From the NCBI RefSeq assembly GCF_036365525.1, contig NC_090399.1, positions 13,453,558-13,517,557 on the forward strand: a stretch of DNA of 64,000 nucleotides, in the 5' to 3' direction. This DNA is from Heterodontus francisci. Its lineage: Eukaryota. A program made the position numbers and the translations under genes. Of this stretch, positions 6,776 to 55,237 are shown one piece after another (the first letter of the stretch is position 1; each line of letters starts with the position of its first letter). The notes under the pieces are model-generated. The model worked only from the letters and a program-made list of their open reading frames with translations. It was not told the origin of the DNA and ran no database searches.

Positions 6776-6939
6776 ATCATGGATGGGCTGGGAGAAGTAT
6801 GAAAAAGCCCAGCCTTCTATACGTCTGCTCCCAGACTGTTTATTAATTATCTTTTTACATATTTATCCATACAGTTGATACTTATTCATACTGAGTTCCC
6901 ACACTCCACTGTCAGGCTATTATATTATTAATAATCTGA

Positions 6940-9941: not shown

Positions 9942-10085
9942 GCTGCCTGCTGCCTGCTGCCAGCAGCCGCGCTCAGCCCAGGCGGACTGCAGCCCAGGCG
10001 GACTGGAGCCCAGACCCGGCTCACATTGCAAAACAAGTCCCGCTCTGCTCCCCCTTTCGGGAGTATGATCCTGGGCGGAGAGGCA
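9550..10085. promoter_or_regulatory. CpG island over exon 1 / promoter of the SAPCD2-like gene
   Basis: High GC and CpG density relative to flanks; GGGCGG box at ~10072. Confidence 0.6.
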
Positions 10086-10604
10086 AGGAAAAGAGGATCA
10101 GTGTGTGTCATTCAGTGTTGTGTGTGCAGCGAGAGAGCTCAGCGATCAGAAACAAACACTGAAAGTGAAATGGAAAATGATAACAGACTGACTGAGACAG
10201 ATGATCAGCGACAAGATAGACGCACCAATGAGCACAGAAGCTGGAAAACACAAAACCAATGTTGGAAAGGTATAAAAAAAACATATACAGACGGGAAAAC
10301 ACATAAATACTGATAGGGTCAGAAATGGAAACACAGATTGGAAAGATTTAAACACAATTTTTGTGAGAGAGGGAAACCGACATAGTCATGAATAGTAAAC
10401 AAAACTGCTGGGTCGAAAAATAAACAGATATAAGGCATAAATACAAAACACAATGCAGAAATACGGATCATATAAGATGAGGTTATTTGTACTTTTCTGC
10501 ACACTTATTGCACTGAAAGAGACACTCACAGGGAACGGGATAACAGATTAATGTTCCTGTGTACTTGAGTCCAACTATCAGCCCGTGTCACTGCCCGGCC
10601 GAAT

Positions 10605-13600
10605 CCCAGAGGGGGAAAGGACAGTGTCTGACCCACTGCCCCACCCAATCCCACAGTGGGGAAAGGACAGTGTCTGACCCACTGCCCACCCAGTCCCAGA
10701 GTGGGGAAAGGACAGTGTCTGACCCACTGCCCCACCCAGTTCCAGAGGGGGAAAGGACAGTGTCTGACCCACTGCCCACCCAGTCCCAGAGTGGGGAAAG
10801 GACAGTGTCTGACCCACTGCCCCACCCAGTTCCAGAGGGGGAAAGGACAGTGTCTGACTCACTGCCCACTCAGTCCCAGAGGGAGGAAAGGACAGTGTCT
10901 GACCCACTGCCCCATCCAGTCCCAGACAGGAAAAGGATAGTGTCTGACCCACTGCCCACTAAGTCCCAGAGGGGGAAAGGACAGTGTCTGAACCACTGCC
11001 CACTCAGTCCCAGAGAGGGAAAGGATAGTGTCTGACCCACTGCCCACTCAGTTCCAGAGGGAGGAAAGGACAGTGTCTGACCAACTGCCCGCTCAGTCCC
11101 AGAGAGGGAAAGGACAGCGTCTGAACCACTGCCCACTCAGTCCCAGAGGGGGAAAGGACAGTGTCTGACCCACCGCCCACTCAGTCCCAGAGAGGGAAAG
11201 GACAGTGTCTGACCCACTGCACCACCCAGTCCCAGAGGGGGGAAAGGACAGTGTCTGATCCATTGCATCACCCACTCCCAGAGGGGGAAAGGACAGTGTC
11301 TGACTCACTGCCCCACCCAGTGCAAGAGGAGGGAAAGGACATTGACTGACCCACTGCCCCACTCACTCCCAGAGGGGGGAAAGGACAGTGTCTGATCCAT
11401 TGCATCACCCACTCCCAGAGGGGGAAAGGACAGTGTCCGACCCATAGCCCCACCCAGTCACAGAGAGTGAAAGGACAGTGTCTGACCCACTGCCCACCCA
11501 TCCCAGAGGAGGAAAGGACAGTGTCTGACCCACTGCCCAACCCAGTCCCAGAGGTAGGAAAGCACTGTGTCTGACCCACTTCCCACCCAGTCCCAGAGGG
11601 AGGAAAGGACAGTGCCTGACCCACTGTCCCTCACAGTCCCAGAGGGGGGAAAGGACAGTGTCTGACCCACTGTCCCTCACAGTCCCAGAGGGTTAAAAGA
11701 CAGTGTCTGACCCACTGTCCCACCCAGTCCCAGAGGGGGGAAAGGACAGTGTCTGTCCCACTGCCACAACCAGTCCCAGTGGAGGAAAAGACAGTGTCTG
11801 ACCCACTGCACCACCAAGTCCCAGAGGGGGAAAGGACAGTGTCTGAGCCACTGCCCCACCCAGTCCCAGAGGGGGAAAGGACAGTGTCTGACCCACTGCA
11901 CCGCCCAGTCCCGGAGGGGGAATGGACAGTGTCTGACCCACTGTCCCACCCAGTCCCAGAGGTGGAAAAGACCGTCTCTGTCCTACTGTACTACCCTGTC
12001 CCGGAGGGGGAAAAGACCGTCTCTGACCCACTGTACCACCCAGTCCAGGAGGGGGAAAGGACAGTGTCTGACCCACTGCCCCACCCAGTGCCAGAGGAGG
12101 GAAAGGACAGTGTCTGATCCACTGCATCACCCACTCCCAGAGGGGGAAAGGACAGTGTCCGACCCACTGCCCCACCCAGTCACAGAGAGTGAAAGAACAG
12201 TGTCTGACCCACTGCCCACCCAGTCCCAGAGGGGGAAAGGACATTGTCTTACCCACTGCCCCACCCAGTTGCAAAGGGGTAAGGACAGTGTCTGACCCCC
12301 TGCCCCACCCAGTCCCAGAGGGGGAAAGGACAGTGTCTGACCCACTGCCCCACCCAGTCCCAGAGGGGGAACGGACAGTGTCTGACCCACTGCATCACCC
12401 AGTCCCAGAGGGAGGAACCGACAGTGTCTGACCCACTGTCCCACCCAGTCACGGAGGGGGAAAGGACAGTGTCTGACCCACTGTCCCACCCAGTCCCAGA
12501 GGTGGAAAAGACCGTCTCTGACCCACTGTACCATCCATTCCCGGAGGGAGAAAGGACAGTGTCTGAACCACTGTCCCACCCAGTCCCAGAGGGGGAAAGG
12601 ACAGAGTCTGACCCACTGTACACTCAGTCCCAGAAGGGGGATGAAAAGTGTCTGACCCACTGCCACACACAGTCCCAGAGGGGAAAAGACAGTGTCTGTC
12701 CCACTGCCCCACCCAGTCCCAGAGGGGGAAAGGACAGTGTCTGACCCACTGTCTCACGCGGTCCCAGAGGAGGAAAAGACAGTGTCTGACCCACAGTCTC
12801 ACCCAGTCCCGGAGGGGGAAAGGACAGTGTCTGACCCACTGCCCCACCCAGTCCCAGAGGGGGAAAGGACAGTGTCTGTCCCACTGCCCCACCAGTCCCA
12901 GAGGAGGAAAGGACAGTGTCTGACCCACTGTCTCATCCAGTCCCAGAGGGGGAGAAGACCGTCTCTGACCCCTGTCCCACCCAGTCCCAGAGGAGGAAAA
13001 GACAGTGTCTGACCCACTGCACCAGCCAGTCCCAGAGTAGGAAAGGACAGTGTCTGACCCACTGCATCACCCAGTCCTAGAGGAGGAAAGGACAGTGTCT
13101 GACCCACTGCATCACCCAGTCCTGGAGGAGGAAAGGACAGTGTTTGACCCACTGCACCACCCAATCCCAGAGGAGGAAAGGAAAGTGTCTGACCCACTTC
13201 CCCACCCACACCCAGAGTGGGAGAGTACAGTGTCTGACCCACTGCATCACCCAGTCCCAGAGGAGGAAAGGACAGTGTCTGACCCACTGTCCCACCCAGT
13301 CCCAGAGGTGGAAAAGACCGTCTCTGACCCACTGTACCATCCATTCCCGGAGGGAGAAAGGACAGTGTCTGAACCACTGCATCACCCAGTCCTGGAGGAG
13401 GAAAGGACAGTGTTTGACCCACTGCACCACCCAATCCCAGAGGAGGAAAGGAAAGTGTCTGACCCACTTCCCCACCCACACCCAGAGTGGGAGAGTACAG
13501 TGTCTGACCCACTGCATCACCCAGTCCCAGAGGAGGAAAGGACAGTGTCTGACCCACTGTCCCACCCAGTCCCAGAGGTGGAAAAGACCGTCTCTGACCC

Positions 13601-16600
13601 ACTGTACCATCCATTCCCGGAGGGGGAAAGGACAGTGTCTGACCCACTGTCCCACCCAGTCCCAGAGGTGGAAAAGACCGTCTCTGACCCACTGTACCAT
13701 CCATTCCCGGAGGGAGAAAGGACAGTGTCTGAACCACTGTCCCACCCAGTCCCAGAGGGGGAAAGGACAGAGTCTGACCCACTGTACACTCAGTCCCAGA
13801 AGGGGGATGAAAAGTGTCTGACCCACTGCCACACACAGTCCCAGAGGGGAAAAGACAGTGTCTGTCCCACTGCCCCACCCAGTCCCAGAGGGGGAAAGGA
13901 CAGTGTCTGACCCACAGTCTCACCCAGTCCCGGAGGGGGAAAGGACAGTGTCTGACCCACTGCCCCACCCAGTCCCAGAGGGGGAAAGGACAGTGTCTGT
14001 CCCACTGCCCCACCAGTCCCAGAGGAGGAAAGGACAGTGTCTGACCCACTGTCTCATCCAGTCCCAGAGGGGGAGAAGACCGTCTCTGACCCCTGTCCCA
14101 CCCAGTCCCAGAGGAGGAAAAGACAGTGTCTGACCCAATGCACCAGCCAGTCCCAGAGTAGGAAAGGACAGTGTCTGACCCACTGCATCACCCAGTCCTA
14201 GAGGAGGAAAGGACAGTGTCTGACCCACTGCATCACCCAGTCCTGGAGGAGGAAAGGACAGTGTTTGACCCACTGCACCACCCAATCCCAGAGGAGGAAA
14301 GGAAAGTGTCTGACCCACTTCCCCACCCAGACCCAGAGTGGGAGAGTACAGTGTCTGACCCACTGCATCACCCAGTCCTAGAGGAGGAAAGGACAGTGTC
14401 TGACCCACTGCACCACCCAGTCCCAGAGGGAGGAAAGGACAGTGTCTGACCCACTGCACCACCCAGTCCCAGAGGGAGGAACGGACAGTGTCTGACCCAC
14501 TGCCCCACCCAGTGCCAGAAGAGGGAAAGGACAGTGTCTGACCCACTGCACCACCCAGGCCCAGAGGGAGTAAAGGACAGTGCCTGACCCACTGCCCCAA
14601 CCAGTCCCAGTGGAGGAAAAGACAGTGTCTGACCCACTGCACCACCAAGTCCCAGAGGGGGAAAGGACAGTGTCTGACCCACTGCACCGCCCAGTCCCAG
14701 AGGGGAGAAAGGACAGTGTCTGAGCCACTGCCCCACCCAGTCCCAGAGGGGGAAAGAACAGTGTCTGACCCACTGCACCGCCCATTCCCGGAGGGGGAAT
14801 GGACAGTGTCTGACCCACTGCCCCACCCAGTCCCGGGGGGGGGGGGGAAAGGACAGTGTCTGACCCACTATCCCATCCAGTCCCAGAGGTGGAAAAGACC
14901 GTCTCTGTCCTACTGTACTACCCTGTCCCGGAGGGGGAAAAGACCGTCTCTGACCCACTGTACCACCCAGTTCCGGAGGGGGAAAGGACAGTGTCTGACC
15001 CACTGCCCCACTCACTCCCAGAGGCGGGAAAGGACAGTGTCTGATCCACTGCATCACCCATTCCCAGAGGGGGAAAGGACAGTGTCTGACCCACTGCCCC
15101 ACCCAGTCACAGAGAGTGAAAGAACAGTGTCTGACCCACTGCCCACCCAGTCCCAGAGGGGGAAAGGACATTGTCTTACCCACTGCCCCACCCAGTTGCA
15201 GAGGGGTAAGGACAGTGTCTGACCCCCTGCCCCACCCAGTCCCAGAGGGGGAAAGGACAGTGTCTGACCCCCTGCCCCACCCAGTCCCAGAGGGGGAAAG
15301 GACAGTGTCTGACCCACTGCCCCACCCAGTCCCAGAGGGGGAAAGGACAGTGTCTGACCCACTGCCCCACCCAGTCCCAGAGGGAGGAAAGGACTGTGTC
15401 TGACCCACTGTCCCACCCATTCCCAGAGGGTTAAAAGACAGTGTCTGACCCACTGTCCCACCCAGTCACGGAGGGGGAAAGGACAGTGTCTGACCCACTG
15501 TCCCACCCAGTCCCAGAGGAGGAAAAGACCGTCTCTGACCCACTGTACCACTCATTCCCGGAGGGAGAAAGGACAGTGTCTGAACCACTGTCCCACCCAG
15601 TCCCAGAGGGGGAACCGACAGAGTCTGACCCACTGTACACTCAGTCCCAGAGGGGGGATGAAAAGTGTCTGACCCACTGCCACACACAGTCCCAGAGGGG
15701 AAAAGACAGTGTCTGTCCCACTGCCCCACCCAGTCCCAGAGGAGGAAAGGACAGTGTCTGACCCACTGTCTCACGCGGTCCCAGAGGAGGAAAAGACAGT
15801 GTCTGACCCACAGTCTCACCCAGTCCCATGAGGGAGAAGACAATGTCTGACCCACTGCCCCATCCAGTCCCAGAAGGGGAAAGGACAGTGTCTGTCCCAC
15901 TGCCCCACCCAGTCCCAGAGGGGGAAAGGACAGTATCTGTCCCACTGCCCCAACCAGTCCCAGCGGAGGAAAAGACAATGTTTGACCCACTGCCCAACTC
16001 CCTCCCAGAGGGGGAAAGGACAGTGTCTGACCCACTGCCCCACCCAGTCCCAGAGGGGGAAAGGACAGTGTCTGACCCACTGCACCACCCAGTCCAGAGG
16101 GAGGAAAGGACAGTGTCTGACCCACTGCCCTGCCCAGTCACAGGGGGAGAAAGGACAGTGTCTGACCCACTGCTCACCCAGTCCCAGAGAGGGAAAGGGC
16201 ATTGTCTGACCCACTGCACCACCAAGTCCCAGAGGGAGGAAAGGACAGTGTCTGACCCACTGCACCACCCAGTCCCAGAGGGAGGAAAGGAAAGTGTCTG
16301 ACCCACTGCCCCACCCAGTGCCAGAGGAGGGAAAGGACAGTGTCTGACCCACTGCACCACCCAGGCCCAGAGGGTGGAAAGGATAGTGTCTGACCCACTG
16401 CACCACCCAGTCCCAGAGGGAGGAAAGGACAGTGCCTGACCCACTGCCCTGCCCAGTCACAGAGGGAGAAAGGACAGTGTCTGACCCACTGCTCACCCAG
16501 TGCCAGAGGAGGGAAAGGGCAGTGTCTGACCCACTGCACCACCCAGTCCCAGAGGGAGGAAAGGACAGTGTCTGACCCACTGCACCACCCAGTCCCAGAG

Positions 16601-18595
16601 GGAGGAAAGGAAAGTGTCTGACCCACTGCCCCACCCAGTGCCAGAGGAGGGAAAGGACAGTGTCTGACCCACTGCACCACCCAGGCCCAGAGGGAGGAAA
16701 GGACAGTGTCTGAACCACTGCACCACCCAGTCCCTGAGGGAGGAAAGGACAGTGCCTGACCCACTGCCCTGCCCAGTCACAGAGGGAGAAAGGACAGTGT
16801 CTGACCAACTGCTCACCCAGTCCCAGAGAGGGAAAGGACAGTGTCTGACCCACTGCCCCTCCCAGTCCCAGAGGGGGAAAGGACTGTGTCTGACCCATTG
16901 CCCCACCCAGTCCCAGAGGGGGTAAGGACAGTGTCTGACCCACTGCACCGCCCAGTCCCAGAGGGGGGAAAGGACTGTGTCTGACCCATTGCCCCACCCA
17001 GTCCCAGAGGGGGAAAGGACAGTGTCTGACCCACTGCCCTACCCAGTCCCAGAGGGGGAAAAGACTGTGTCTGACCCACTGCCCCACCCAGTCCCAGAGG
17101 AGGAAAGGACAGTGTCTGACCCACTGCCCCACCCAGTCCCAGAGGGGGGAAAGGACAGTGTCTGATCCACTGCATCACCAAGTCCCAGTGTTGGAAAGGA
17201 CAGTGTCTGACCCACTGCCCCACACAGTCCCAGAGGGGGAAAGGACAGTGTCTGACCCACTGCACCACCCAGTCCCAGAGGGAGGAAAGGACAGTGTCTG
17301 ATCCACTGCATCACCCACTCCCAGAGGGGGAAAGGACAGTGTCCGACCCACTGCCCCACCCTGTCCCAGAGGGGGGAAAGGACAGTGTCTGACCCACTGC
17401 ACCACCCAGTCCCAGAGGGAGGAAAGGACAGTGTCTGATCCACTGCATCACCCAGTCCCGGAGGGGGAATGGACAGAGTCTGACCCACTGCAGCGCCCAG
17501 TCCCAGAGGGGGGAAACGACAGTGTCTGACCCACTGCTCCACCCAGTCCCAGAGGGGGGAAAGGACAGTGTCTGACCCACTGTCCCACCCAGTCCCAGAG
17601 GGGGAAAGGACAGTGTCTGACCCACAGTCCCACCCTCTCCCAAAGGGGGAAAGGACATTATCTGTCCCACTGCCCCACTCAGTCCCAGAGAGGAAAAGGA
17701 AAGTGCCTGACTCACTGTCTCACCCAGTCCCAGAGGGGGAAAGGACAGTGTCTGACCCACTGCCCCACCCAGTCCCAGAGGGGGAAAGGACAGTGTCTGT
17801 CCCACTGCCCCACCCATTCCCGGAGGGGGAAAGGACAGTGTCTGACCCACAGCCCCACCCAGTCCCAGAGGGGGAAAGGACAGTGTCTGTCCCACTGCCC
17901 CACCAGTCCCAGAGGAGGAAAAGACAGTGTCTGACCCACTGCCCCACCCAGTCCCAGAGGGGGAAAGGACAGTGTCTGTCCCACTGCCCCACCCATTCCC
18001 AGAGGGGGAAAGGACAGTGTCTGACCCACTGTCTCATCCAGTCCCAGAGGGGGAGAAGACCGTCTCTGACCCCTGTCCCACCCAGTCCCAGAGGAGGAAA
18101 AGACAGTGTCTGACCCACTGCACCAGCCAGTCCCAGAGTAGGAAAGGACAGTGTCTGACCCACTGCATCACCCAGTCCTAGAGGAGGAAAGGACAGTGTC
18201 TGACCCACTGCATCACCCAGTCCTGGAGGAGGAAAGGACAGTGTTTGACCCACTGCACCACCCAATCCCAGAGGAGGAAAGGAAAGTGTCTGACCCACTT
18301 CCCCACCCAGTCCCAGAGTGGGAGAGTACAATGTCTGACCCACTGCATCACCCAGTCCCAGAGGAGGAAAGGACAGTGTCTGACCCACTGCACCACCCAA
18401 TCCCAGAGGAGGAAAGGAAAGTGTCTGACCCACTGCACCACCCAGTCCCAGAGTGGGAGAGTACAGTGTCTGACCCACTGCATCACCCAGTCCCAGAGGG
18501 GGAGAGTACAGTGTCTGACCCACTGCATCACCCAGTCCCAGAGGAGGAAAGGACAGTGTCTGACCCACTTCCCCACCCAATCCCAGAGGGGGAAT
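10605..18595. repeat. ~8-kb GC-rich satellite, 44-46-bp unit, ~175 copies, with higher-order block duplications
   Basis: Consensus CCCAGAGGGGGAAAGGACAGTGTCTGACCCACTGCCCCACCCAGT; period 45 (15241 to 15286). Confidence 0.95.
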
Positions 18596-18989
18596 GGCGA
18601 GTGTTTTATCCTTCACACCATCCAGTCTCTCTCTTAGTGTGTACGTTCTGAAACTAGTTGCATGGACTTTCCAATGCAATGGCAGAGCTTGATTGACTCA
18701 TTTGCCCCTTTTTCATTCGTCAACTAATTCCAAAATCAATGGTTCACAATTTGTCCTCAAGAAATGTGATTGTCCGCTTGGTCTTTGAACAATAGCAACA
18801 AGCCAACCTTGAAATAAATGGGCTAATTTATTTTTTGTCCAATTTTGTGTTCAGTTAATTCTTTGTGTTCTTCTTGTTTTTTTGTTAAAGCAGACAGAAA
18901 ATTTTCAGAATACTTCTCGTTCTGAGATATCATCAAGAACTTGCATTTATATAGAACCTTAATACATCACAAGGCACTTTGTGGGAAAC

Positions 18990-19930
18990 ACAATTTGTTC
19001 TGATTAGTAAATTTGCAGACGACACAAAGGTTGGTGGAGTTGCGGATAAGGATGAGGATTGTCAGAGGATACAGCAGGATATAGATCGGTTGGAGACTTG
19101 GGCGGAGAAATGGCAGATGGAGTTTAATCCGGACAAATGTGAGGTAATGCATTTTGGAAGGTCTAATGCAGGTGGGAGGTATACAGTAAATGGCAGAACC
19201 CTTCGGAGTATTGACAGGCAGAGAGATCTGGGCGTACAGGTCCACAGGTCACTGAAAGTGGCAACGCAGGTGGATAAGGTAGTCAAGAAGGCATACGGCA
19301 TGCTTGCCTTCATCGGTCGGGGCATCGAGTATAAAAATAGGCAAGTCCTGTTGCAGCTGTACAGAACTTTAGTTAGGCCACACTTAGAATATTGCGTGCA
19401 ATTCTGGTCGCCACACGACCAGAAGGACGTGGAGGCTTTGGAGATGGTACAGAGGAGATTTACCAGGATGTTGCCTGGTCTGGAGGGCATTAGCTATGAG
19501 GAGAGGTTGGAAAAACTCGGATTGTTTTCACTGGAACGACGGAGGTGGAGGGGTGACATGATAGAGGTTTACAAAGTTATGAGCGGCATGGACAGAGTGG
19601 ATAGTCAGAAGCTTTATCCCAGGATGGAAGAGTCAGTTACTAGGGGACATAGGTTTAAGGTGCGAGGGGCAAAGTTTAGAGGGGATGTGCGAGGCAAGTT
19701 TTTTACACAGAGGGTGGTGAGGGCCTGGAACTTGCTGCCGGGGGAGGTGATGGAGGCAGATACGATAGCGACGTTTAAGAGACGTCTTGACAAATATATG
19801 AATAGGATGGGAATAGAGGGATATGGGCCCTGGAAGTGCAGAAGGTGTTCGTTTAGGCAGGCATCAAGATCGGCGCAGGCTTGGAGGGCTGAATGGCCTG
19901 TTCCTGTGCTGTACTGTTCTTTGTTCTTTG
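18990..19930 (+). mobile_element. CR1 LINE, 5'-truncated, with open RT C-terminal region
   Basis: ISKFADDTKVGG...WQMEFNPDKCEVMHFG...LVRPHLEYCVQFWSP...RGDMIEVYK; ends in a TTCTTTG microsatellite tail. Confidence 0.95.
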
Positions 19931-20779
19931 TTTGACAGCAAGCCACGTATCAAGGCGATATCGGGAATAGTGACCAAAAGCTTAATCAATCAAGTAAGTT
20001 TTAAGGAGCATCTTAAAGGACGAGACAGAGGTAGAGAGGTCGAGAGGTGGAGAGGTTTAGGGAGGGAATTCCACAGTTTGGGCCTCGGCAGCAGATTGCA
20101 TGACAGCCAGTGCCTAAACGACTAAAACCTGGGATGCGCAAGAGACCAGGTTGGGGGGAGCAGAGATATATTGGAGGTTTGTAGTAATGGAGAAGGTTAC
20201 ACAGAGAGGGAGGAGTGAGGCCTTTGCTATCATCACCTTGAATATTTAATGACCAGATTTAAGCTGATAAATGAATTATTGACTTGACAAGGAACTATTG
20301 TTGATTACAATTAAAACATAGTCATATTTTTCACATAATACATCGCGTTTTCCATAGAAAATGAACTTTGGCAAAAATATTAAATAAAACATGTAACTTT
20401 ATGCTAAAGTGAAGGGGGGGTGGATTTTGTCTCAAAATGGATTCTGAAAAGTGAACCTTGTCTTTTAAAAGCTATTCTTCACAAATTATTGTTGTAGGTT
20501 CCTGAAGTGTCCACAGAACATTACTTTATCTGTCAGTCAACCTTCTTTTAAATGGCTTAATTTGTCAATGTGCAGAGAAATTGTGATGCAGGGATCCAAA
20601 CAACTGCCTCCTGTCTGTCACTGATAGTGATGTCTTGGTTCACAATTCGTTTCATCAGGAAGCAAAATATCACCCTCTGTTGGCTTGTACATGTAAACGG
20701 ACTGAGAAATAAACTCTTGGTGCAGTTTATTGTATGGAAACTGGTGCAGCTTCTGACACTTACATAGAGAGGAAATGTC

Positions 20780-22590: not shown

Positions 22591-25500
22591 AATCGCTCTT
22601 GTGCGGGGCCTTGCGGACGTCTTGCTATGTTAAAACCTCAAGTTGTTACTGTTGTTGATATCCGCCAGGCTGGCATGTGACAGAATGATGATGGAAGGTG
22701 TGAAAACATATCACAGTAGGTGTCAGTGAATTCAGTAAAGGAAGAGACACATTAGCAGAGAGTCACTGATTCCAGGAAAGGAGGGTGAAGTGCCCTCATC
22801 GCTCTTAGCCTCGATATTTTATTTAACACGATCTGTTATTTCTTACGCTGTCATTTTTTTTTTTTGTTGTGACCTGGAATGCACTGCCTGAAAGGTTGGT
22901 GGAAGCAGATTCAATATTAATTTTCAAAAGGGAATTGGATAATTACTTGAAGGGGGGAAAAAAATTACATGGTCATGGGGAAAGAGCGCAGAAGTGGTCT
23001 CGATAGATTTCTAAAGGGCCGGCAGAGGCACCGTGGGCTGAATGGCCAAATTCTGTGCTGTATCATTCTATGATCTTATGAAACACAAGGCAGAGTTGGG
23101 TCGTAACCTACTGACACTCGGTGCCAAATAATAGGTGGTTTATCATGGGTACATTGTCATGCGTCTGTGATTTTCTGATAAGCCCCACCACTGTGTGAGT
23201 TTGGGGGGGGTGGTGGTCTCAGAAAATTCCACCCAGGCTCTCCAACTGAAATAGAAACCTATCCTTTCCCTTTCAGATCCTGATCCATCTGATCAGTACT
23301 TCCAGCATCCGAATTCTCTGCAGTTTTTTTGTACAATAACTGATTGTTATCACATTTAATCGTCCTCATTGCCCTGTAGCTTTTTTGCATAACCCGCCCT
23401 GTGGACGTGTGCACACTACAAGATAACCCCCGGTTTAATTTTTTTCTTAACCAGCCGTAACTACAGTCTCATTCTGTGATAACATTCTCCTTTAACTCAG
23501 AGAATTGTACAGCACAGGAGGGAGCCATTCGGCCCTTCATGCCTGTGCTGGCTCTTTGAGAGGGCTATCCAATTAGCCTGCCTTTTCCCCATAGGCCTGC
23601 AAATTTTTTTCTGTGCTCGAATCCCAAGAGAGTATAGCTTTTGTAGGCAAAATAGGTCAGAATGTTTATTTATGGTTAAATATAAAAAACAACAGAATTC
23701 TAAAGAAATTATAACAGAGTAAAGACATGACACGGAAATCAGAATAGCAAATCCTGGAAGGCATTCATTTACCCTTTCTGATCATATCTAAAGTATTTAG
23801 AATAATACAAGGATTCAAAAATAGATAAAAAGGAACAATGTCTTCTTGTTGGGGAGGGGGAGTCCAAAACAACCAGGCCTAACCTTAAGATTAGAGCCAA
23901 GCTGTTCAGGAATGACGTTAGGGTGCACTTCACAAAATGGATTTTAGAAATCTAAGACTCTCTCAGCCCTAAATTGAGTCCTGAGATCGACAGGTTTTTG
24001 TTGGGTAAGAGTGTTAAAGGACAGGGAGCTAAGGCAGGTAAGTACATTCGAGATACAGAGCAGCCAGGGTCGAATTGAATGGCAGAACAGGCTCAAGGGG
24101 CTGAATGGCCTCCCTCCTGTTCCTATGTTCTCCTGAATTCCTGTATAAATCTTTACTGTTTCAAACAACATAGGCCAGATGCTGTGCCTTTCTGGAGTTG
24201 GGCTGCATCATCAGTATAGCTGGAATTCCACCCACCACTAAGACTGAGCCCTGACTCCAGCCTGACCTGGGTGTAGGGGCGGGGTGGGGGTAATGCGGTC
24301 ATTCTAATAGTTTTGGCCAGTTCAACCCTGGGAGTGTGCCTTGAGCGGGAGTGGATATTGGTCTCATCATAATGCTCAGGCCATCATGGTGATCATGGTG
24401 TGCGGTCTGGAAAGGCTTTGATGGACCTGCTGATCTTTTCTTGTCCATCAATTGCCTATGCCCGTACGTAACCTTCAAACAGCAGCCTATGGTTTGACCC
24501 TCTGGTTACAGAGGCACAACTTGTGACAAAGACAGTAATAAAAGGCCTGACCTTCACTGTCAATGAGAATTGCTGGTGATCTGTCAGGGGTTTCCATCTC
24601 TGTACAGATCCACAATAAAAAACCAGAAGTTACAGCATTGTCTATATTACACATGAGGATGGTATGACGAGTAAATGCAGTGTGACAAGAGTCACGTAGA
24701 TCGCCAACTTCCACCTCCGTACCAAACTTCACTGACAACTTCATCGATTGTAAAGCACTTTGAGACATCCGGTGGTCATGAAAAGTGTTACATAAATACA
24801 AGCCTTTCTTTCTCTTTTCCGTAACATCACCTAATTCGCCCTGCCTCAGTTTATCTGCTGCTGAAACCCTCATCCATACCTTTGTCGCCTCTCGTCTTGT
24901 CTATTGCAAAGCTGTCTTGGCCAGCCTCCCGTCTTCCACCGTCTATAAATCTGAGCTCACCCAAAACTGCTGAAGGCACAGTTGCCACTTGTGGAGCGAT
25001 TAAAATTGGGAATGCTCAAGAGACCAGAATTTAGAGGCACGCAGAAATCTCAGAGGGTAAGTAGGGCTGGAGGAGGTTATTGACTTCTCCGTCACTCCCT
25101 CTCTTTCTCTCTCTCTCTCTCCTCCTTTAAGACACATTGTAAAACCTACCTCTTTGACCAAGCTTTTGGTTATCTGTTCTAATATCTCCTTAGGAGACTC
25201 GGTGTCAAAGTTTGTTTGCTAACACTGCTCTGAAGTGCCTTGGGATGTTTTGCTACATTAAAGGCAGATCCCATTCCAATTAGCATCGCCAAACTCGAAG
25301 TGTTCAAAACAATGGAAAATAGAACACATAATATTTAATGCCCTCTGATTATATTTTTCCCTGATGTTTGCTCCTAGCAGTGGCCTGGAAATTAACGTGT
25401 ATTGCCTGGCAACTCTAGGCTCGATGCCCCTATTTGCACAAAATGATCTGAACTCAGTTCAGGCAAAGTCGGGATCTTATAATTTGCTTCATCACTTAAT

Positions 25501-26052
25501 AAGGGTTCTACTTGAAATGTGTTTTGGGCAGTTGTGAGCTAGGACTAGTAAATGAAGCATTGAAAACTTTGGAAGTATTCTAATTTCTCAACTGGTTCAC
25601 CAATCATCTTTAGAGGAGGGAGCCTGCCTACCCTACCTGACTTGGCCTACATGTGACTGCAGTCCCACGTACATGACTCTGAATACCTCAAAACGGTTGG
25701 TAACCAAAGGGCACACAGATTAAAGATAATTGGCAAAAAAAATGGAGCAGCAGTCTGGGGAGAATTCTTCCTCGCAGTGAGTTGTTATGATCTGGAACAA
25801 ACTGCCTGAAAGGCAGATGGACACAGATTCAGTAGTAACTTACAAAATGGAATTGGATATATACTTCAAAAGGAAAAAAAAAATCAGGGCTACAGGGAAA
25901 GAGCTGGAAAAGTGGGACTAATTGAATAACTCCTTCAAAGAGTTGGCACAGGTACGATGGGTCAAATGGCCTGCATTCTCTGCTGCATCATTCTATCATT
26001 TCTGGGTACGTAAAAGAAAAGTCAAGAAGTACCGAGCTCCTCCATCAATACA

Positions 26053-26441
26053 TCACTTCCTTCCAAAGAAAGCCACAATTCCCATAAGAGCCAAGAGTTT
26101 TGCACAAGTAAGTGACACCACTGCAGCTATAGCGTGCCCTGGTATCTTCTTTGATGCTATTTCAATGGAGCCATCATGGTGGCTTGTCCCGTTATCTTCA
26201 ATGCCTGAGCCCAACCCAGAGTCATCAATAAATAATCCCGAAACAGAATCATCAATGGGTAATCCCGAACCAGAATCAACAATGGATATTCCCGAATCAG
26301 AATCATCAATGGGTAATCCCGAAACAGAATCAACAATAGATATTCCCGAATCAGAATCATCGATGGGTAATCCCGAAACAGAATCATCAACAGGAAATCC
26401 CATATACATATCTTCAAGTGGCAAGGCCCAACAGCAGAACT
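26053..26441 (-). CDS. Exon 2 of the putative small membrane proteoglycan-like gene (acidic Ser-Gly 9-aa repeats plus C-terminal hydrophobic segment)
   Basis: Acceptor CTAAT...TTTTTTTCCC...TTGTAG|AG is phase-compatible with exon 1. Spliced peptide EFCCWA-LPLEDMYMGFPVDDSVSGLPIDDSDSG...NGT...IPGHAIAAVVSLTCAKLLALMGIVAFFGRK*. Contains a 27-bp internal repeat x7. Confidence 0.72.
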
Positions 26442-26952
26442 CTACAAGTCAAGGTTTTTGGGAAAAAATAACAGATTAGAAGTTCCTTGTTATTATCCAG
26501 AAAGCTTATTGTTGAAGGATGATCCTGGAGCCAATCTGTACACAGCGTTACATTTATTTTAGAGTAAAAGGATTACAAACATGTAGCTCCTTACTCAAAA
26601 AAACCTCCAGCAGTCTCACTAAGTGTCTCCTTATTAATACCCTCCACCTGCATATAATTAAACCATTGATATACAATTAACATTCCTCAATGTGTTTTAG
26701 TCTTAAAAACATACAGGCTGAGGATTTTCACTTCTGAACTCATATTAAGAAACTCTGCAGCTCCCAGCGTATCATTTTCCTACCGCCAATTTCAATTGTC
26801 AAAAAGAAAATCATGGAATGTCAGTGTGGAATTTCCCCCATTGCATGCCAGGCGTTCTGAAAGTGGAAAATCCTTTCCCCAAACACACAGTAATGACCCA
26901 TTTCTATACACATTGGATGTCACCTCAGTGTCATTTTCAAAAATTCACTTAC

Positions 26953-27007
26953 CCGAAATGGACAGAAAGAGAATAAATGTTAAATGGATGCTGACTTTAC
27001 CAGCCAT
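26953..27007 (-). CDS. Exon 1 (signal peptide) of a putative small membrane proteoglycan-like gene
   Basis: AATATGG start context; MAGKVSIHLTFILFLSIS + G, then canonical donor G|GTAAGT (phase 1). An in-frame upstream ATG exists at 27046. Confidence 0.7.
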
Positions 27008-27239
27008 ATTTGTCAAGCACCGATTTCGCCTGGAGTTTGTAGTCATCTGAGTTAGTTCCTTTATCTTCAAAATGAAAAGGTTTGATTTCCTGTCCTTCAG
27101 CTAAATCCAGAAGATTTAGCAAACGCTGGCAGTGGTTTGGACAGGGGAATTACACAATGTTAGTGTGGTTAGAATTTGCTGTTTGACAAAAGCTGAACAA
27201 CATTTGCTGAGTGAGCTTTTCTGCATTGCTCATCTGCAA

Positions 27240-27595
27240 TTGCACACTATGGGCAAAGAGTTGTCCACAACCGAGTGTTGCAGACTGGCACATTCCAAGG
27301 TGCAGGACTACGTGCTGAGCGACGCAATAAAGCTTGGGGCATCTGCTGCAAAGGCTCTTTGGGGAAAGACCACTGTGTAAGATCCTCCCTCCATTGTGAA
27401 CCGAGGGGCTGGAACCTGTGTAAAACCCCCTCGGGCTGTATACACCAACATATGATATATGTGTGCATTGTACATAAAATGGAATAGCAAGGGTTGTGAG
27501 GAAACTGATATCTTTCTGGAATGTCAAATTGGAACTGTTTGGTAATGTATTTATCTTTTTACAGATTTTTATGAATAAAGTATATTTTTGGAAAA
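27240..27595 (+). mobile_element. L1/Tx1-clade LINE 3' end
   Basis: ORF end ...ECCRLAHSKVQDYVLSDAIKLGASAAKALWGKTTV*, then a 3' UTR with AATAAA and an A-rich end. Confidence 0.55.
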
Positions 27596-28970
27596 CAAAT
27601 TGCTCACTCTGGCAGAATATTGTGCGCTTTAAAAAATAATCGAAGGCCGGGAACCATTTCCAGGTCCCGACCCCAGACTGGCTGTCAGGGTGCCCACCTG
27701 GGAGATCTTCCCAGAGGCAGTCAGGTCGGAGGACAGCTGCCGGGTTGCTGAGGCTGCAGGCCCAACAGGAGGCCCTGTAGCCTTGGGCGGATGGCAACCC
27801 CACCTGCAGAGGTGGGCTTTGCCGCCACAGCATGGGGACCGCGAGGGCACCTCCATCTTGAAGGTACCCTTTGAAGAGGTTAGAATTTTTAAAATATAAA
27901 CTCTGGCCACTGCTGCCTGGCCGCCTCTGTGGAGGGGTAACCCCTTCCCAGGATGGCCTCTGCTGCTGCTGTTTTCCCACTGGTCAATGCTGCTCCAGTG
28001 ATGGTGGGTGTGTTCGAACTGGAGATCTAGTGGGCCACCCCAGAACAGCCCACCAGCAAGCCCCTCCAGGCTTGGCCCTCAGTGGGGGGGGGGGTGGGGT
28101 CCGTCCATTGCCGGGAAGATCCGGCGGCATCTCTAAGCAGACCACAAATGAGCAGTTAATTATACAAGTTAGCTAGCTGCTGCCTCTGGGTAGGTAGCCT
28201 CTGCGGTGATTACCATCCTCTGGGAAAGATCGGCTGGAGGCAGGAACACGTCAGCCCGCTGACCCAGCGCTAATATTTTTGAATTTCCTCCCTGTCCCGC
28301 CTTCAATCCCGCCCTGACAGGACCAGGGAGAATCCGCCCCCTATTGCGATCTCCCGAGTGTCTTTATCTTATCCATATTGCTATCATTCGCTTTCCTACT
28401 CCAACCGATTATTTTCCAGAACCTTGGAAATGTGGAATTCCTTGTGATGAAAAGCAAGAGCTTGCGACTTTATCTGATGTGATTTTTAAACTAGCTTGGG
28501 TGAATGTGGAAGCTGCTCTCTCTTTGCTTAGTCTATAAGTGAAAGTCAGGGGCAGTCTGCAAATATGAAGCCTTGATCAATACAGCAAAACCACAGTGAG
28601 AGCAAATCAGCAGTCCCATTTTATATCTCTCCAACTTTTATTTCCATTCAAATCAATGGGTTCTCATAAGATTCCACGTTGATTTTCTGAGGATCATAGG
28701 AACAGCCATAGGTCAGTCAGCCCCTCAATTCTGTTACACCAGTAGAGTAGAAAAAAACACTTGAATTTATATAATGCCTTCCATGACCTCAGAATGTCCC
28801 AGAGCACATTAAAGCCGATTAAACACTTTTTTGGAAATGTAGTCACTGTTGTAATTCTATTAGATCACGTTTGATCAGTACCTCATTTACCTACCTTTAC
28901 CCCATATCCCCTTGATACCCTCACGCGACAAAAATCTGGTGATCTCAGACTTGGAAATTTGAATTGACCA

Positions 28971-30077
28971 TGTTATGATCCCCGTGGAGACCACCAACAA
29001 ACAAAAAGAATCATCGTGTTCATGCCGGCCAACAAGGAGCCATCTAGCCTAATCCATAGCTGAGTGATTTTTGACTTTAACTCCTTATAGGGACTAAACC
29101 AAATCAGGAGTACATCCCTATGAATCTTCCTTAATTAAGTTCAAACCAGAGAAATTCTTATAGACTCTTATTTGGGTCCAAAGAATTGAACTAGTTTTCC
29201 CTCAAAGAAAGAAAACTAACAGAGAATATTACCATCTTTTGGATAGCCTTTTTAAAATAATTATGGCTAAGTCATAAGTATAAAGGTCTGGGAAACTCTC
29301 TTCAATACGTATCTCTCCACTTAAAGAGACTCAGAGAGGGGGTTCTTGTAGTTGTATACAGAATACTACATGAGACGATTTATTAACTTTTATATATTTA
29401 TTAAAGAATTTAACATCACAATATCAAATATTACTAAGAGATGTAACACATAATCTTATTTCTAACATAGAATCCAAAAGTTTAACCCTGCTAATGCTAT
29501 AGCAAACTATCTTAGAATATCCATCAAAATTTAAAGCTAACCTTTCCCTTAAATTCCCCAAGTAAGTCATAGGGTGAGAAGTATTGTTGAGGAATTCAAC
29601 ACTTCTAATTTTTGCTCCAGAAACCCTCATGTTTATACTGTTTCTAAGGTATCATCCGACCTCTTAGCATATAGGTGTTACCTTTCTGTGTGTGTTTTTC
29701 CTGCTTTTAAGATCCATATTTGATAGTACCATTAACTAACATCTCCACTTAACGTATTGCTGGAATTCCCCTGCTCTTGAAGTTGTGAGCATTTATCTGG
29801 TCAACATGTTTATAATTGTGTTTACTTGACCTCTTGTTCCTGTAAGTACTATTCCATTTATTATTTTATTATCTATAATTATGTTTTTATGGTACCTGGT
29901 AACAACCTTTTGAGTCCATCTGTCTATATCACCAACCAACACTATCAATTAAGTTTATTGCTACCTCTTACTGATGTCACACAGGATATTTCAATCTTCT
30001 AAGTCTCTGGCAACAGAAATGCTGAAAAGGATTTCCCAACTTAAAAGGGTGTTTCTGGTTCACATTCGATTGTAACA
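28971..30077 (-). mobile_element. Solo-LTR-like element (~1.1 kb)
   Basis: Begins TGTTATGATC and ends GATTGTAACA (imperfect inverted termini); related end at 121-141. No TSD recognisable. Confidence 0.5.
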
Positions 30078-30369
30078 GGGACCTTGAAAGACCTTGACAT
30101 TTCTAACTCCACCTTCTTAAAGATATTAAGGGATATGGGCAAAAAGCAGGCATATGGAGTTAGGCCACATATCAGCCATGATCTCATTGAATGGCAGGAC
30201 AGGCTTGAGGGGCTGAATGGCCTACTCCTGTTCCTATCTTCCTATCTTCCTATTAAAGGGGAATTTCAGTGAGTCTTGAAAACTGACCATTTATTCAATC
30301 TCTAATTCTAAATGGCACAATATATTAACTATATCTAAATTCTACCTAATTAAGCCTATGATACCTATA

Positions 30370-33387: not shown

Positions 33388-35100
33388 ATGGAATTGAAAA
33401 AAAATGACACTGAAAATATATTTTGGGACAATGGGCCTAACAAAGAGGACTGGTGTAATTACAAACGAAGGTTACACATTTGGCTGAAAGCTCATAAAAT
33501 AGGTGATGAGGATAAAGTAATTTATTTCCTCACGATGATGGGGCCAGATGATTTTGAGGTAGTGTGAGATGCCTGTGAGACCCCAGTACTATGGACTATT
33601 CTGAAATTAATGAGATTCTGGACTCATATTATGGCATAATTAAGAACAAAATTGCATTCCGCGAAAGGTAGCAATTGCCAAGAGAGACTATTGCAGATTA
33701 TATTCTTAAATTAAAGAAACTGTCTCATCACTGTGAGTATGGCATGAACTTAGAAGTCAACCTTAAAGACATGTTGGTTGGAGGTCTAAAGATAAGTAAA
33801 ATCCAGGCCAATCTTTTGAATAAAGACAATAAGCTGATGTGGAAGAAAGCCTGCGATGAGACTGCAGCCATGGAAATGGCAGGAAGAGATAGCTACAGAC
33901 TGCAAAGCAGTTCTTTTCCTAAGCTGACAGGGGAGGTGAAGTTAGTGTTAGGGTGGAATACGATGATGCATCCTATTACTTGCCATTGGTAGTAGTAGGA
34001 GGGAACAAAGTCCCCCTAATGGGAAGGATTTGGCTCAAGAAAATACGGTTAAACTGGGCTGAGTTATTTACAATAGGGATCAGTAAGAGTACGTCTGACA
34101 TTGATGAAGTATTAAGGTAGCACAAAGTGGTCTTTGAGCAAGGAGGACCAAATGATAAAATTAGGCATCACAGGCCCGAAGTCAAGATAAAGGACAATGT
34201 ACAGCCAACATTTTGCAAAGCTAGGCAGTGTCTTATGCACAGTCAGAAGCAGTAAATAAAGAGCTGGTCAGATTAGAAAGAACAGCAGCAATTAAGAAGG
34301 TAAAGAACAGTGAATGGGTGCACCCAATGCGGCAGTTCAAAAAGCAGATGGGTCTATTTAGATTTGTAAAGATTATAAACAAATGGTAAATAAGGTGTTT
34401 GAAAATGATACTTGTCTACTGCCTACTAGTGATGATTTACTGTCTAATTTAGCAAATGGGAAGGTGTTCAGTAAGATAGGTCAATCAAATGCATATTTAC
34501 AATTAGAATTTACTAGCAAGAGCAAGGAATTGCTCACTATTCATACACACAAAGACTTGTACCAGTACAAAAGTTTAACATTTGGGGTGTCTACTGCTCT
34601 GGTAATGTTCCAGAGCATCGTGGATCAGTTACTAAGTGGGATGAAAGGTGTGTGCTGCTTCTTAGATGACATTTTAATCAACAGTAAGATAGAAAAAGAG
34701 TATATTGTAAGGTTGAACAAAATCCGAGATTGACTTCAAGAGTATGGCATCAAAGCTAAAAAGCACAAGTGTTATTTGATGGTGCCAAGTGTAACATACC
34801 TGGGTCACCAACTAGATGGTGAAAGTATCCACCCAACACAGGAGAAGGTTAGGGGGATTTTGAAAGCAAAGAGACTCAAGAACAAAGAAGAACTCTGAAC
34901 ATTCATAGGAATTGTTGTGTACTATTCAAAGTTGAAAGTTGAAAGTTCATCCCCGATTTAGCTAATACATTCACCCCATTGTATCAACTGCTCAAAGATG
35001 GAATAGTTTGGGAGTGGTCTGTGGAACGTCAGAAGGCATTTGAAGAAGTGAAGAAATTACTGACCAGTGATGCTGTTTTGACCCATGATCCCAAGAAACA
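33388..35100 (+). mobile_element. Degenerate Gypsy/Ty3 LTR retrotransposon, gag-pol remnant
   Basis: Gag-like ETIADYILKLKKLSHHCEYG...LKDMLVGGLK; RT motifs FSKIGQSNAYLQL, TFGVSTALVMFQ, CFLDDILI; WEWSVERQKAFEEVKKLLTSDAVLTHDP. Many stops and frameshifts. Confidence 0.85.
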
Positions 35101-35979
35101 ATTTGAATTCCTTCCAACTATGGAAGATCTTTGTACTCTATGTAAATTTAAAATCATTAAAAGGTCCAATTTGACAATTTATTTTGACTGAATTCAATGT
35201 CACTTGCAACTATACTTCCTCTATATGACCTTGCACGTGAGAATTGCTTCAAATATACTATCTGACTGCTTCCACCGCCTTTTGAGGAAGAGAATTCCAA
35301 ACACTCACAACCCTCTTTATACTTCCTCTTTCACTATGTTAATTTCATCTAATAATTAATACCTTTCTTCCCTGATTGCAATGTCTGTAATGTCCCTCTC
35401 TTTTGTGAAAACAGATGCAAAATATTCATTAAGAACCATACCTGTAGTATAATGTAATAGAGTGGACATGGGGTTGTTACTGGGTCGATTATGTAAATAG
35501 ACTGTGTGTATCATCACAGGAAATTATGTAATATAATCTGTACAGAACCTTGCAGAGAGCTGTAGAGGAAACCTTAGATGCAAGACATGTTCAGTAAACT
35601 CCTGTTATTCTAAGCTTCAGACTCTTATGTATTCTGTACTAAGACTTAATAGTTATCAGAATATTATATGGTGGCAGCAGGAAAAGAAGATGGAGAAATC
35701 TTTGCCTTTACTGGAAAACTTCTAGAACGTAGCTGGGCTGAACCAAGCCGAGGTGTGGCTGAAATGGGACCAGAGGTTTGCAAGGTATTGTGATGCATTG
35801 GGTCTCATGCAGAAGCCAGACAAGGAGAAGGTCAATATGCTGTTGTATGCAATAGGGGAGTGTGCAGACAATATGCTCATTACTCAAGGTATAGATGAAG
35901 AGAAAGCTACATGTGAAGAAGTCATTACGGCACTCAGGACGTACTTTAATGTAAGGAAAAATGTCATTGTGGAGTTTTT

Positions 35980-38900
35980 TTTATTCATTCATGGGATGTG
36001 GGCATGGCTGGCCAGGCCAACATTTATTGCCCATCCCTAATTGCCCTTGAGAAGGTGGTGGTGAGCTGCCTTCTTGAACTGCAGCAGTCCATGGGAGGTA
36101 AGTACACACACAGTGCTGTTAGGAAGGGAGTTCTAGGGTTTTGCCCCAGCGACAGTGAAGGAACGGTGATATAGTTCCAAGTCAGGATGGTGTGTGACTT
36201 GGAGGGGAACTTGCAGGTGGTGGTGTTCCCATGCATTTGCAGCCCTTGTCCTTCTAGTTGGTAGAGGTCATGTGTTTGGAAGGTGCTGTCTAAGGAGCCT
36301 TGGTGCATTGCTGCAGTACATCTTGTAGATGGTACACACTGCTGCCACTGTGCATCGGTGGTAGAGGAAGTGAATGTTTGTGGATGGGGTGCCAATCAAA
36401 CGGGCTGCTTTGTCCTAGATGGTGTCGAGCTTCTTAAGTGTTGTTGGAGCTGCACCCATCCAGGCAAGTGGAGAGTATTCCATTACACTCCTGATTTGTG
36501 CCTTGTAGATTGTGGACAGGGTTTGGGGAGTCAGGAGGCGAGTTACTCGCCGCAGGATTCCTAGCTTCTGACCTGCTCTTGTAGCCATGGTATTTATATG
36601 GCTACTCGAGTTCAGTTTCTGGTCAATGATAGCCCCCATAATGTTAATATTGGGAGATTCAGTGATGGTAATACCATTGAATGCCAAGGGGAGATGGTTA
36701 GATTCTCTCTTGTTTGAGATGGTCATTGTCTGGCACTTGTGTGGCGCGAATGTTAATTGCCAGTTATCAACCCAAGCCTGGATATTATCCAGGTCTTGCT
36801 GCAACTCTACATGGACTGCTTCAGTATCTGAGGAGTCACGAATGGTGCTGAACATTGTGCAGTCATCCCCAGTTCTGATCTTATGATGGAAGGAAGGTCA
36901 TTGATGAAGCAGCTGAAGATGGTTGGGCCTAGGACACTACCCTGAGGAACTCCTGCAGTGATGTCCTGGAGCTCAGATGATTGGCCTCCAACAACCACAA
37001 CCATCTTCCTTTGTGCTAGGTATGACTCCAACCAGCGGAGAATTTTCCTCCTGATTCCCATTGACTTCAATTTTGCTAGGGCTCCTTGATGCCATACTTG
37101 GTCAAATGCTGCCTTGATGTCAAGGGCTGTCACTCTCACCTCACCTCTTGAATTCAGCTCTTTTGTCCATGTTTGAACCAAGGCTGTAATGAGGTCAGGA
37201 GCTGGGTGGCCCTGGCGGAAACCAAACTGAGCATCAGTGAGCAGGTTATTGCTAAGCAAGTGCCGCTTGATGGCACTGTTGATGACACCTTCCATCGCTT
37301 TACTGATGATTGAGAGTAGGCTGATGGGGCGGTAATTGGCCGGGTTGGACTTGTCCTGCTTTTTGTGTACAGAACATACCTGTGCAATTTTCCAGATTGC
37401 AGGATAGATCCCAGTGTTGTAGCTGTACTGGAACAGCTTGGCTAGGGGTGCGGCAAGTTCTGGAGCACAGGTCTTCAGTACTATTGCTGGAATATTGTCA
37501 GGACCCATAGCCTTTGCAGTATCCAGTGCCTTCAGTCATTTCTTGATATCACGCGGAGTGAATCGAATTGGCTGAAGTCTGGCATCTGTGATGCTGGGGA
37601 TTTCAGGAGGAGGCCAAGATGGATTATCAACTTGGCACTTCTGGCTGAAGATTGTTGCAAATGCTTCCAACTTACCTTTCACACTGATGTGCTGGGCTCC
37701 CCCATCATTGAGTATGGGGATATTTGTGGAGCCACCTCCTCCAGTTAGTTGTTTAATTGCCCACCACCATTCATGGCTGGATGTGACAGGACTGCAGAGC
37801 TTACATCTGTTCCGTTGGTTATGGGATCGCTTAGCTCTGTCTATTCAGTTTGGCAAGCAGATAGTCTTGCGTTGTAGCTTCACCAGATTGACACCTCATT
37901 TTGAGGCATGCCTGGTGCTGCTCCTGGCAGGCTCTCCTGCACTCTTCATTGAACCAGGGTTGGTCTCCTGGCTTGATGGTAATGTGGGAGATATGCCGGG
38001 CCATGAGGTTACAGATTATGGTTGAGCACAATTCTGCTGCTGCTGATGGCCCATAGCGCCTCATGGATGCCCAGTTTTGCATTGCTAGGTCTGTTCAAAA
38101 TCTATCCCATTTAGCATGGTGGTAATGCCACACAACACGATGAAGGGTATCCTCAATGTGAAGGCGGGACTTTGTCTCCACAAAGACTGTGCGGTGGTCA
38201 CTCCTACCAATACTGTCATGGACAGATGCATCTGTGGCAGGCAGATTGGTGAGGACGAGGTCATGTATGTTTTTCCCTCTTGTTGGTTCCCTCACCACCT
38301 GCCGCATACCCAGTCTAGCAGCTTTGTCCTTTCGGACTCGGCCAGCGGTGGTGCTACCAAGCCACTCTCGGTGATGGAGATTGAAGTCCCCCACCCAGAG
38401 TACATTCTGCACCCTTTCCACCCTCAGAGCTTTCTCCAAGTGCTGTTCAACATGGAGGAGTACTGAGTCATCAGCTGAGGGAGGGCGGTAGGTGGTAATC
38501 AGCAGGAGGTTTTCTTGTCCATGTTTGATCTGATGCCATGAGACTTCATGGGATCCGGAGTCCATGTTGAGGACTCCCAGGACAACTCTCTCCCGACTGT
38601 ATAGCACTGTGCCGCCACCTCTGGTGGGTCTGTCCTGCTGATGGTGATGGCAGTGTCTGGGATATTGTCAGGTATGATTCCGTGAGTATGACTATGTCAG
38701 GCTGTTGCTTGACTAGTGTGTGGGACAGCTCTCCCAATATTGGCACAAGCCCCCAGATGTTAGTAAGGATGACTTTGCAGGGTCGACAGGGCTGGGTTTG
38801 CCGTTGTCGTTTCCAGTGCCAAGGCCGATGCCAGGTGGTCCGTCTGGTTTCATTCTTTTTCATTGACTTCGTAGCGGTTTGATACAATTGAGTGGATTGC

Positions 38901-39190
38901 TGCGCCATTTCAGAGGGCATGTAAGAGTTAACCACATTGCTGTGGATCTGGAGTCACATGTTGGCCAGACCAGGTAAGGACAGCAGATTTCCTTCCCTAA
39001 AGGGCATTAGTGAACCAGATGGGTTTTTACAACAATTGACAATGGCTTCATGGTCATAAATAGACCAGCTTTTAATTCCAGATTTATTAATTAAATTCAC
39101 ATTCCACCTTCTGCTGTGGTGGGATTCAAACCCATTCTCCAGAGCAATACCCGAGGTCTCTGGGTTACTAGTCCAGTGATAATACCACTA
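35980..39190 (-). mobile_element. CR1/L2-superfamily LINE, near full-length ORF2 (APE + RT), frameshifted
   Basis: APE motifs QQPDIVILTESYL, TTYRPPS, VGDFN, SDHRTV; RT motifs NYRPISLLSIISK, QFGFRQG, LDIKAAFD, GVPQGSVLGP. Confidence 0.9.
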
Positions 39191-52722: not shown

Positions 52723-52794
52723 GCCCTCGGACCCTGGCGCAGCTCTTGGCGGTGGGACCAGCAACTCGACCCCGAAGGCAGAAAAACCCCTGGG

Positions 52795-54820: not shown

Positions 54821-55237
<417 letters not shown>

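Follow-up and report, generated by a model that had tools for sequence, protein, structure and literature searches.

A lysine in the middle of a transmembrane helix is costly and is normally neutralised by a partner. Such pairing is best exemplified here by the receptors that couple to the adaptor DAP12, whose helices span 20-23 residues with a basic residue at position 7-12, lysine being the residue used by type I partners (available text of PMC1440944). According to the same text, a lysine placed in polyleucine or polyvaline suffices for DAP12 pairing and bulky ectodomains can block assembly, while a central lysine is given as the only feature common to DAP12 partners in the available part of PMC13107469. 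The partners named in these portions of both papers carry Ig or lectin domains, and the first gives the occurrence of DAP12 down to bony fishes only. DAP12 is unmentioned for sharks in the available text and one supplement of PMC3964593 and in the available texts of PMC6795676 and PMC10751288, and sharks are unmentioned in that of PMC4536121.

Small membrane proteoglycans form the other relevant group. SNORC is encoded by three coding exons at human 2q37.1 and carries one chondroitin chain at Ser44 (PMC7210984, available part), and the addition of xylose depends on a Ser-Gly dipeptide that has acidic residues no more than about eight positions away (PMC2063922, available part). Small membrane proteoglycans and lysine-coupled receptors are each known; their combination in one protein without a folded domain was not found described in the open-licence literature.

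The whole stretch of DNA analysed (64,000 nt from the shark Heterodontus francisci; hereafter, the window) harbours a real, spliced two-exon gene on its minus strand, the strand to which coordinates refer unless marked otherwise. Coding exon 1 (26953..27007; 55 nt, phase 1) opens the reading frame and encodes the larger part of the signal peptide; its ATG at 27007 has A at -3 and G at +4, and its donor reads GTAAGT. The 511-nt GT-AG intron (26442..26952) contains a branch-like CTAAT at 26479-26475, a T/C tract, and a TAG acceptor, and is followed by coding exon 2 (26053..26441), which encodes the end of the signal peptide, the ectodomain, the membrane helix, the tail, and the stop. Splicing 27007-26953 to 26441-26053 yields 444 nt and 147 aa. 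An earlier, sequence-only reading had proposed this hidden gene with its 55-nt exon, 511-nt intron, and 147-aa product, and every item was reproduced. Across the window, just two donors are preceded by an open hydrophobic leader, and of these only that of exon 1 is of phase 1 with GTAAGT. The outer end of the earlier proposal, 27046, corresponds to an upstream in-frame ATG (27044..27046) in a weak context; the 13 aa that it would add are unmatched in both homologues described below, whose first residue aligns with the 27007 ATG.

The junction that the reading had expected between 26953 and 26441 appears in contigs from all three public runs, as a skip of 511 nt bounded by CT..AC on the plus strand. 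Depth at the joint is 28.6, 6.8, and 5.2 in the three runs, which represent one sample from one study and whose records name neither a tissue nor RNA, their RNA status having been guessed by a program. The run evidence comprises contigs only, compared over 23200-30100, and these show no transcript start, end, strand, or level. Exon 2 is covered by contigs of all three runs without a difference inside the coding part, and because the contigs run unspliced through the stop at its end, the predicted C-terminus is the real end in these contigs. One contig spans 26441-25236 and others tile down to 23200, the edge of the compared stretch; they would represent a single transcript with a probable long 3' untranslated region (23200..26052), of which no lower end was found. 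Contigs of two runs (X1, X2) stop 29 nt into exon 1 (26953-26981), which suggests a fork at the donor, through either a retained intron or a second acceptor. Bins 28051-28743 lack contig cover in all three runs.

Upstream of the start codon lies a cluster of RUNX-, ETS-, and GATA-type words (27054..27170), located 163, 84/53, and 59 nt before the ATG, respectively. Of 1036 overlapping 200-nt windows, 3 contain all three types (two of the 3 being this place), as do 42 of 5000 shuffles, the motifs having been picked after sight of the sequence. The cluster hints weakly at blood-cell expression. The remaining 200-nt window with all three types, at 51101-51300, has the first H2B gene roughly 1 kb away.

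An unfiltered phmmer search against 1.84 billion representatives returned 32 matches, two of which reach the hydrophobic end of the query: P0011 (scyTo_0019692, GCB74951.1) from the catshark Scyliorhinus torazame and P0031 (chiPu_0019916, GCC21444.1) from Chiloscyllium punctatum. Both are labelled 'hypothetical protein' and each is the sole member of its cluster; identity in the C-terminal part is 46% over 91 residues for P0011 and 36% over 84 for P0031. In the remaining 30 matches the best stretch lies in the repeat region and goes no further than residue 107 of 128; they were dropped because the three inspected were unrelated tandem repeats. The N-termini of the two homologues, which had no counterpart in the query, provide an independent match to exon 1 (10/19 and 12/19 identical in tblastn), with a score reached by 2 and 0 of 2000 shuffles, respectively; leader and helix matches are bettered by at most 2 of 2000. 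In a word-indexed search with exon 2 alone, none of the 281 candidates matched at an E limit of 10, and a profile search among proteins of 9-240 aa gave 2 of 1792, both already known. A weak search for longer relatives (241-2000 aa) found none among the 8000 best candidates, no paralogue occurs within the window, and none of 222 pattern matches in a metagenome scan was confirmed. No solved structure was matched in sequence searches of the PDB (two hits at E about 0.3 in one, none in the other), and no Pfam family is matched by any of the three proteins. Given the phmmer, profile, Pfam, and PDB outcomes, the family is otherwise known, in the collections searched, only from these two unnamed predictions. 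Judged by sequence, the gene is conserved in at least two other sharks and belongs to one family with both 'hypothetical' proteins. This bears out the initial view of a small acidic Ser-Gly membrane protein outside any named family.

Like the Heterodontus protein, the Scyliorhinus and Chiloscyllium homologues combine a signal peptide, a membrane-proximal L-x-S-G, K-x-P, and a helix with a central lysine; unlike it, they are devoid of both the 9-aa repeat array and an N-glycan sequon. In the three-way alignment, 8 of 25 leader columns and 8 of 42 ungapped ectodomain columns are invariant, the latter including Asp91, Leu95, Ser97, and Gly98, as are Lys117 and Pro119 ahead of the helix and Arg146 after it. 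The Chiloscyllium model has Cys at the stop position and continues in frame into a 31-residue tail (residues 107-137) without tyrosine. This tail is identical at 8 of 18 positions to the read-through of the window (26052-25999), a level attained in 1 of 10000 shuffles, and the read-through reflects either a real stop loss or a draft-assembly error.

Signal peptide cleavage is placed by rule after Ala24, leaving a cysteine-free ectodomain of about 97 aa that is strongly acidic (20 acidic, 2 basic residues). Single-sequence AlphaFold2 renders it as coil with pLDDT of about 50 up to the helix, at low overall confidence. The 147-aa product has nine Ser-Gly dipeptides, compared with four and two in the homologues, and much of its ectodomain is built from seven acidic Ser-Gly repeats of 27 nt or 9 aa (26212..26400), the seventh of which deviates from the pattern. 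Tandem Repeats Finder reports a 27-nt unit present 6.9 times with 82% matches and a higher-order unit of 54 nt at 26216-26401. A 185-aa open frame on the opposite strand of exon 2 (25922-26479, plus strand), without a Pfam match, is probably a by-product of the repeat. The 9-aa repeats and the NGT sequon (Asn102; 26185..26193) named in the sequence-only reading are both present, but neither extends to the homologues, and the array is an expansion specific to H. francisci.

Ser-Gly motifs are often unoccupied, and proteoglycan status is here a prediction from the motif. Three to six acidic residues lie within eight positions of Ser-Gly at all 15 sites of the three proteins and one site is invariant, so the site definition in the available part of PMC2063922 applies. 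The invariant site, Ser97-Gly98 (26203..26208), conserved together with Asp91 and Leu95, would be the best candidate for a glycosaminoglycan. It is likely, on this basis, that one or more of the Ser-Gly sites carry chondroitin or heparan sulfate.

Hydropathy predicts a single transmembrane helix at residues 122-144 (23 aa; 26065..26133), and single-sequence AlphaFold2 models one unbroken helix over the same residues, through the lysine, with pLDDT 65-83. We consider it very likely that this segment spans the membrane. Seven of its 23 columns are invariant in the three proteins (Val127, Leu129, Lys133, Leu134, Leu135, Gly139, and Ile140). Lys133 (26098..26100) occupies position 12 in the motif K-L-L-x3-G-I and precedes the first cytoplasmic Arg by 11-12 residues in all three. 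The sequence-only reading had singled out this lysine, rightly so in that it is the most conserved feature and invariant throughout; with 7 of 23 helix columns invariant among three sequences, one invariant column is by count not rare. By hydropathy, all three proteins pair a 23-residue helix with Lys at position 12, fitting the DAP12 rule at the edge of its range. A basic tail of three residues follows the helix in two of the three, here GRK and the stop (26053..26064) without a tyrosine motif, and no ITAM or ITIM occurs either in these short tails or in the tyrosine-free 31-residue read-through of the third. Scans of the three proteins and of 300 window frames detected no Ig or C-type lectin domain. 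The protein is accordingly not assigned to the DAP12-coupled receptors, as the Ig or lectin domain is missing and the pairing is a prediction.

The genomic neighbourhood provides a separate perspective. The first coding exon of a SAPCD gene lies at 9525-10097 on the minus strand (SAPC2_N, E 3e-24), and 17 frames further downstream of it have no Pfam match. On the far side of the gene, Pfam identifies frames for histones H2B (52369-52809, minus), H4 (54824-55237, minus), H1-type (61245-62000, plus), and a second H2B (63218-63706, plus); to our eye the first H2B and the H1 are presumably divergent from canonical histones. We infer from its position next to histones that the SAPCD exon represents the MHC-linked, SAPCD1-type copy. 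Two self-repeating arrays flank it, one GC-rich and about 8 kb long directly upstream (10588-18627) and one AT-rich and about 2.6 kb long downstream (6919-9552), and decayed LTR-type and LINE-type retroelement frames are found at 33672-36040 (plus), 36415-38953 (minus), 18955-19935, 45508-48028, and 57246-58883. The Pfam scan, confined to frames of at least 32 aa outside repeats and outside the array at 10.6-18.6 kb, covered 150 of the 229 listed minus-strand frames, 129 plus-strand frames, four histone frames, and the 17 further minus-strand frames. Its matches were limited to fragments of reverse transcriptase, histones, and a single zinc-finger match below threshold, with no other cellular gene detected in the scanned frames between the SAPCD exon and the histones.

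In the available part of PMC10751288, sawfish chromosome 34 presents vars1, SAPCD (minus), an interval of 50 kb in which no gene is annotated, and then H4 (minus) and H2B (plus); next come abhd16a, nfkbil1, csnk2b, clic1, ddah2, three NCR3 genes, and AIF1. The same part of that source places sapcd1 next to vars1 in reedfish, and in the white shark and small-spotted catshark shows vars1, two unnamed same-strand models, and histone-sized genes. The second of these models occupies the slot and orientation of the present gene, as LOC121291375 (79 kb) in white shark and LOC119975953 (34 kb) in catshark. Since the order SAPCD, gap, H4, H2B in the window matches sawfish chromosome 34, the window, and the gene with it, probably lies in the MHC class III interval of a cartilaginous fish.

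We weigh the evidence as pointing to a membrane proteoglycan of type I whose Lys133 mediates pairing with a DAP12-type adaptor, a reading that we hold with a confidence a little below even. The signal peptide would be cleaved, and the disordered, acidic, cysteine-free ectodomain would be xylosylated on at least one Ser-Gly site. Whether a partner helix supplies the acidic residue that neutralises Lys133, most plausibly from the aspartate pair of a DAP12-type dimer, is in our estimate an evenly balanced matter. It would be the tail of the partner that signals, because three residues cannot. The protein might then work like the chain of an activating immune receptor in which a stalk bearing glycans takes the place of the Ig or lectin domain; alternatively, it might be a regulator that occupies DAP12-type adaptors. 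With the repeat expanded in this species, the candidate chains would number 9 rather than 2-4. That many MHC class III neighbours (vars1, histones, SAPCD) are not immune genes counts against an immune role.

The most durable competitor, which we regard as possible yet somewhat unlikely, is a non-signalling small surface proteoglycan or sialomucin akin to SNORC, podoplanin, or glycophorin, serving in the cell coat, adhesion, or growth-factor binding. Its lysine would pair with another membrane protein (a transporter, a channel, or a second copy of itself) or act as an ER quality-control signal until assembly; charged helix residues do act as retention signals (available part of PMC11335228), and the protein has no folded ligand-binding domain. 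Its Atlas neighbours are likewise small non-signalling membrane proteins. Queried with the catshark homologue, Atlas returns si:dkey-262k9.2 (0.86), SNORC (0.86), podoplanin (0.85), and glycophorin and syndecan (both 0.83), and exon 2 itself scores 0.79 at best, yet all these scores are below 0.9 and are leads only. The SNORC cluster, second by features, shares 157 of 256, below the 170 typical of same-family matches, and because comparable scores recur across podoplanin-, glycophorin-, and syndecan-type clusters, they point to a common architecture. Structure matches of the catshark protein were low-confidence helices and were disregarded. What a non-signalling protein leaves unexplained is the fit of the lysine, in position and identity, to the DAP12 rule, loose as that rule is.

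Genes of the Ig superfamily usually begin with a leader exon of phase 1, and the present leader exon is joined straight to one encoding stalk plus helix. The gene could descend from one for an activating receptor of Ig type, reduced by loss of its Ig exon to a remnant whose present role is that of a decoy or sink for the adaptor, a scenario that we judge improbable. Consistent with it are NCR3 and other Ig genes in the same shark chromosome region, the donor fork suggested by the contigs that end within exon 1, and the unnamed 79-kb and 34-kb models filling the slot in white shark and small-spotted catshark. Against it, the 300 frames contain no Ig or other non-transposon, non-histone domain above the cut-off, the 511-nt intron has no Ig domain, both homologues are equally without one, and the search for longer relatives, weak as it is, was empty.

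That the hydrophobic end is instead a cleaved GPI signal, as the sequence-only reading had offered as an alternative, has very little in its favour. A GPI-anchored proteoglycan would tolerate the lysine since the segment is cleaved off, the hydrophobic stretch lies almost at the C-terminus, and in H. francisci Gly120 is acceptable under a simple omega-site rule. However, by that rule of thumb no omega site is common to the three proteins, the catshark protein having no candidate; no polar spacer follows Gly120, the chain ends in basic residues and is extended by 31 residues in Chiloscyllium, and conservation of the helix is good (61% and 43% identity).

A divergent SNORC orthologue or paralogue acting in cartilage, a protein that the reading had been reminded of by the layout and the segment PGHAIAAVV without establishing homology, has the slimmest prospects of all despite the same layout of leader, short acidic Ser-Gly ectodomain, helix, and tiny tail and the second Atlas rank, and identity with SNORC is probably to be rejected: the segment is not conserved in either homologue; PF15756 (DUF4690) is found in none of the three proteins at E up to 10, HMMER filters dropping most matches above about 0.1; there are two coding exons versus three; the neighbours are the SAPCD exon and histones, not the human 2q37.1 locus; 'snorc' is absent from the MHC and paralogue gene tables in the available part of PMC10751288; and no SNORC protein is among the matches of the word-indexed, phmmer, and profile searches.

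Irrespective of these alternatives, the locus brings a further gene family, expressed but unnamed, to the MHC class III region of cartilaginous fishes, a region that serves in reconstructions of the ancestral MHC and whose sawfish annotation has no gene in this slot (PMC10751288, available part). The gene is not described in the open-licence literature searched, a scope that excludes most subscription journals. Should the adaptor pairing of the preferred reading fail, the result is a modest one, and a new shark-specific small membrane proteoglycan remains. Its boldest extension, which we consider unlikely, would be a small domain-free chain of an activating immune receptor, kept by sharks in their MHC class III region, in which chemokines, microbes, or partner receptors are bound by the glycosaminoglycan chains, the lysine couples the protein to a DAP12-type ITAM adaptor, and repeat number tunes how many chains are carried. 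Were that true, it would constitute a third, domain-free route to ITAM coupling and possibly a relic of early MHC-linked innate receptors.

Comparison with known systems places the protein between its two groups of counterparts. With syndecans, podoplanin, glycophorins, and si:dkey-262k9.2 (the last unmentioned in the main text of the open-licence literature and in the available MHC gene tables) it has in common a leader, an unstructured, predicted glycosylated ectodomain, and a single helix. It differs from the first three in having no Pfam match to PF01034, PF05808, or PF01102, and from syndecans in that a three-residue tail stands in place of the PF01034 cytoplasmic domain. SNORC (C2orf82) is similarly a small type I protein with an acidic disordered ectodomain, a Ser-Gly site, and a tail of few residues, its helix presumably having no charged residue; its own hallmarks include expression confined to chondrocytes and a SOX9 enhancer in intron 1. 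With the DAP12-coupled receptors (KIR2DS, TREM1/2, SIRP-beta1, PILR-beta, and NKp44), to which no sequence homology was detected, the predicted protein shares the type I layout, the 23-residue helix, the lysine at position 12, and a tail without a signalling motif, with a disordered Ser-Gly stalk replacing their Ig or C-type lectin domain.
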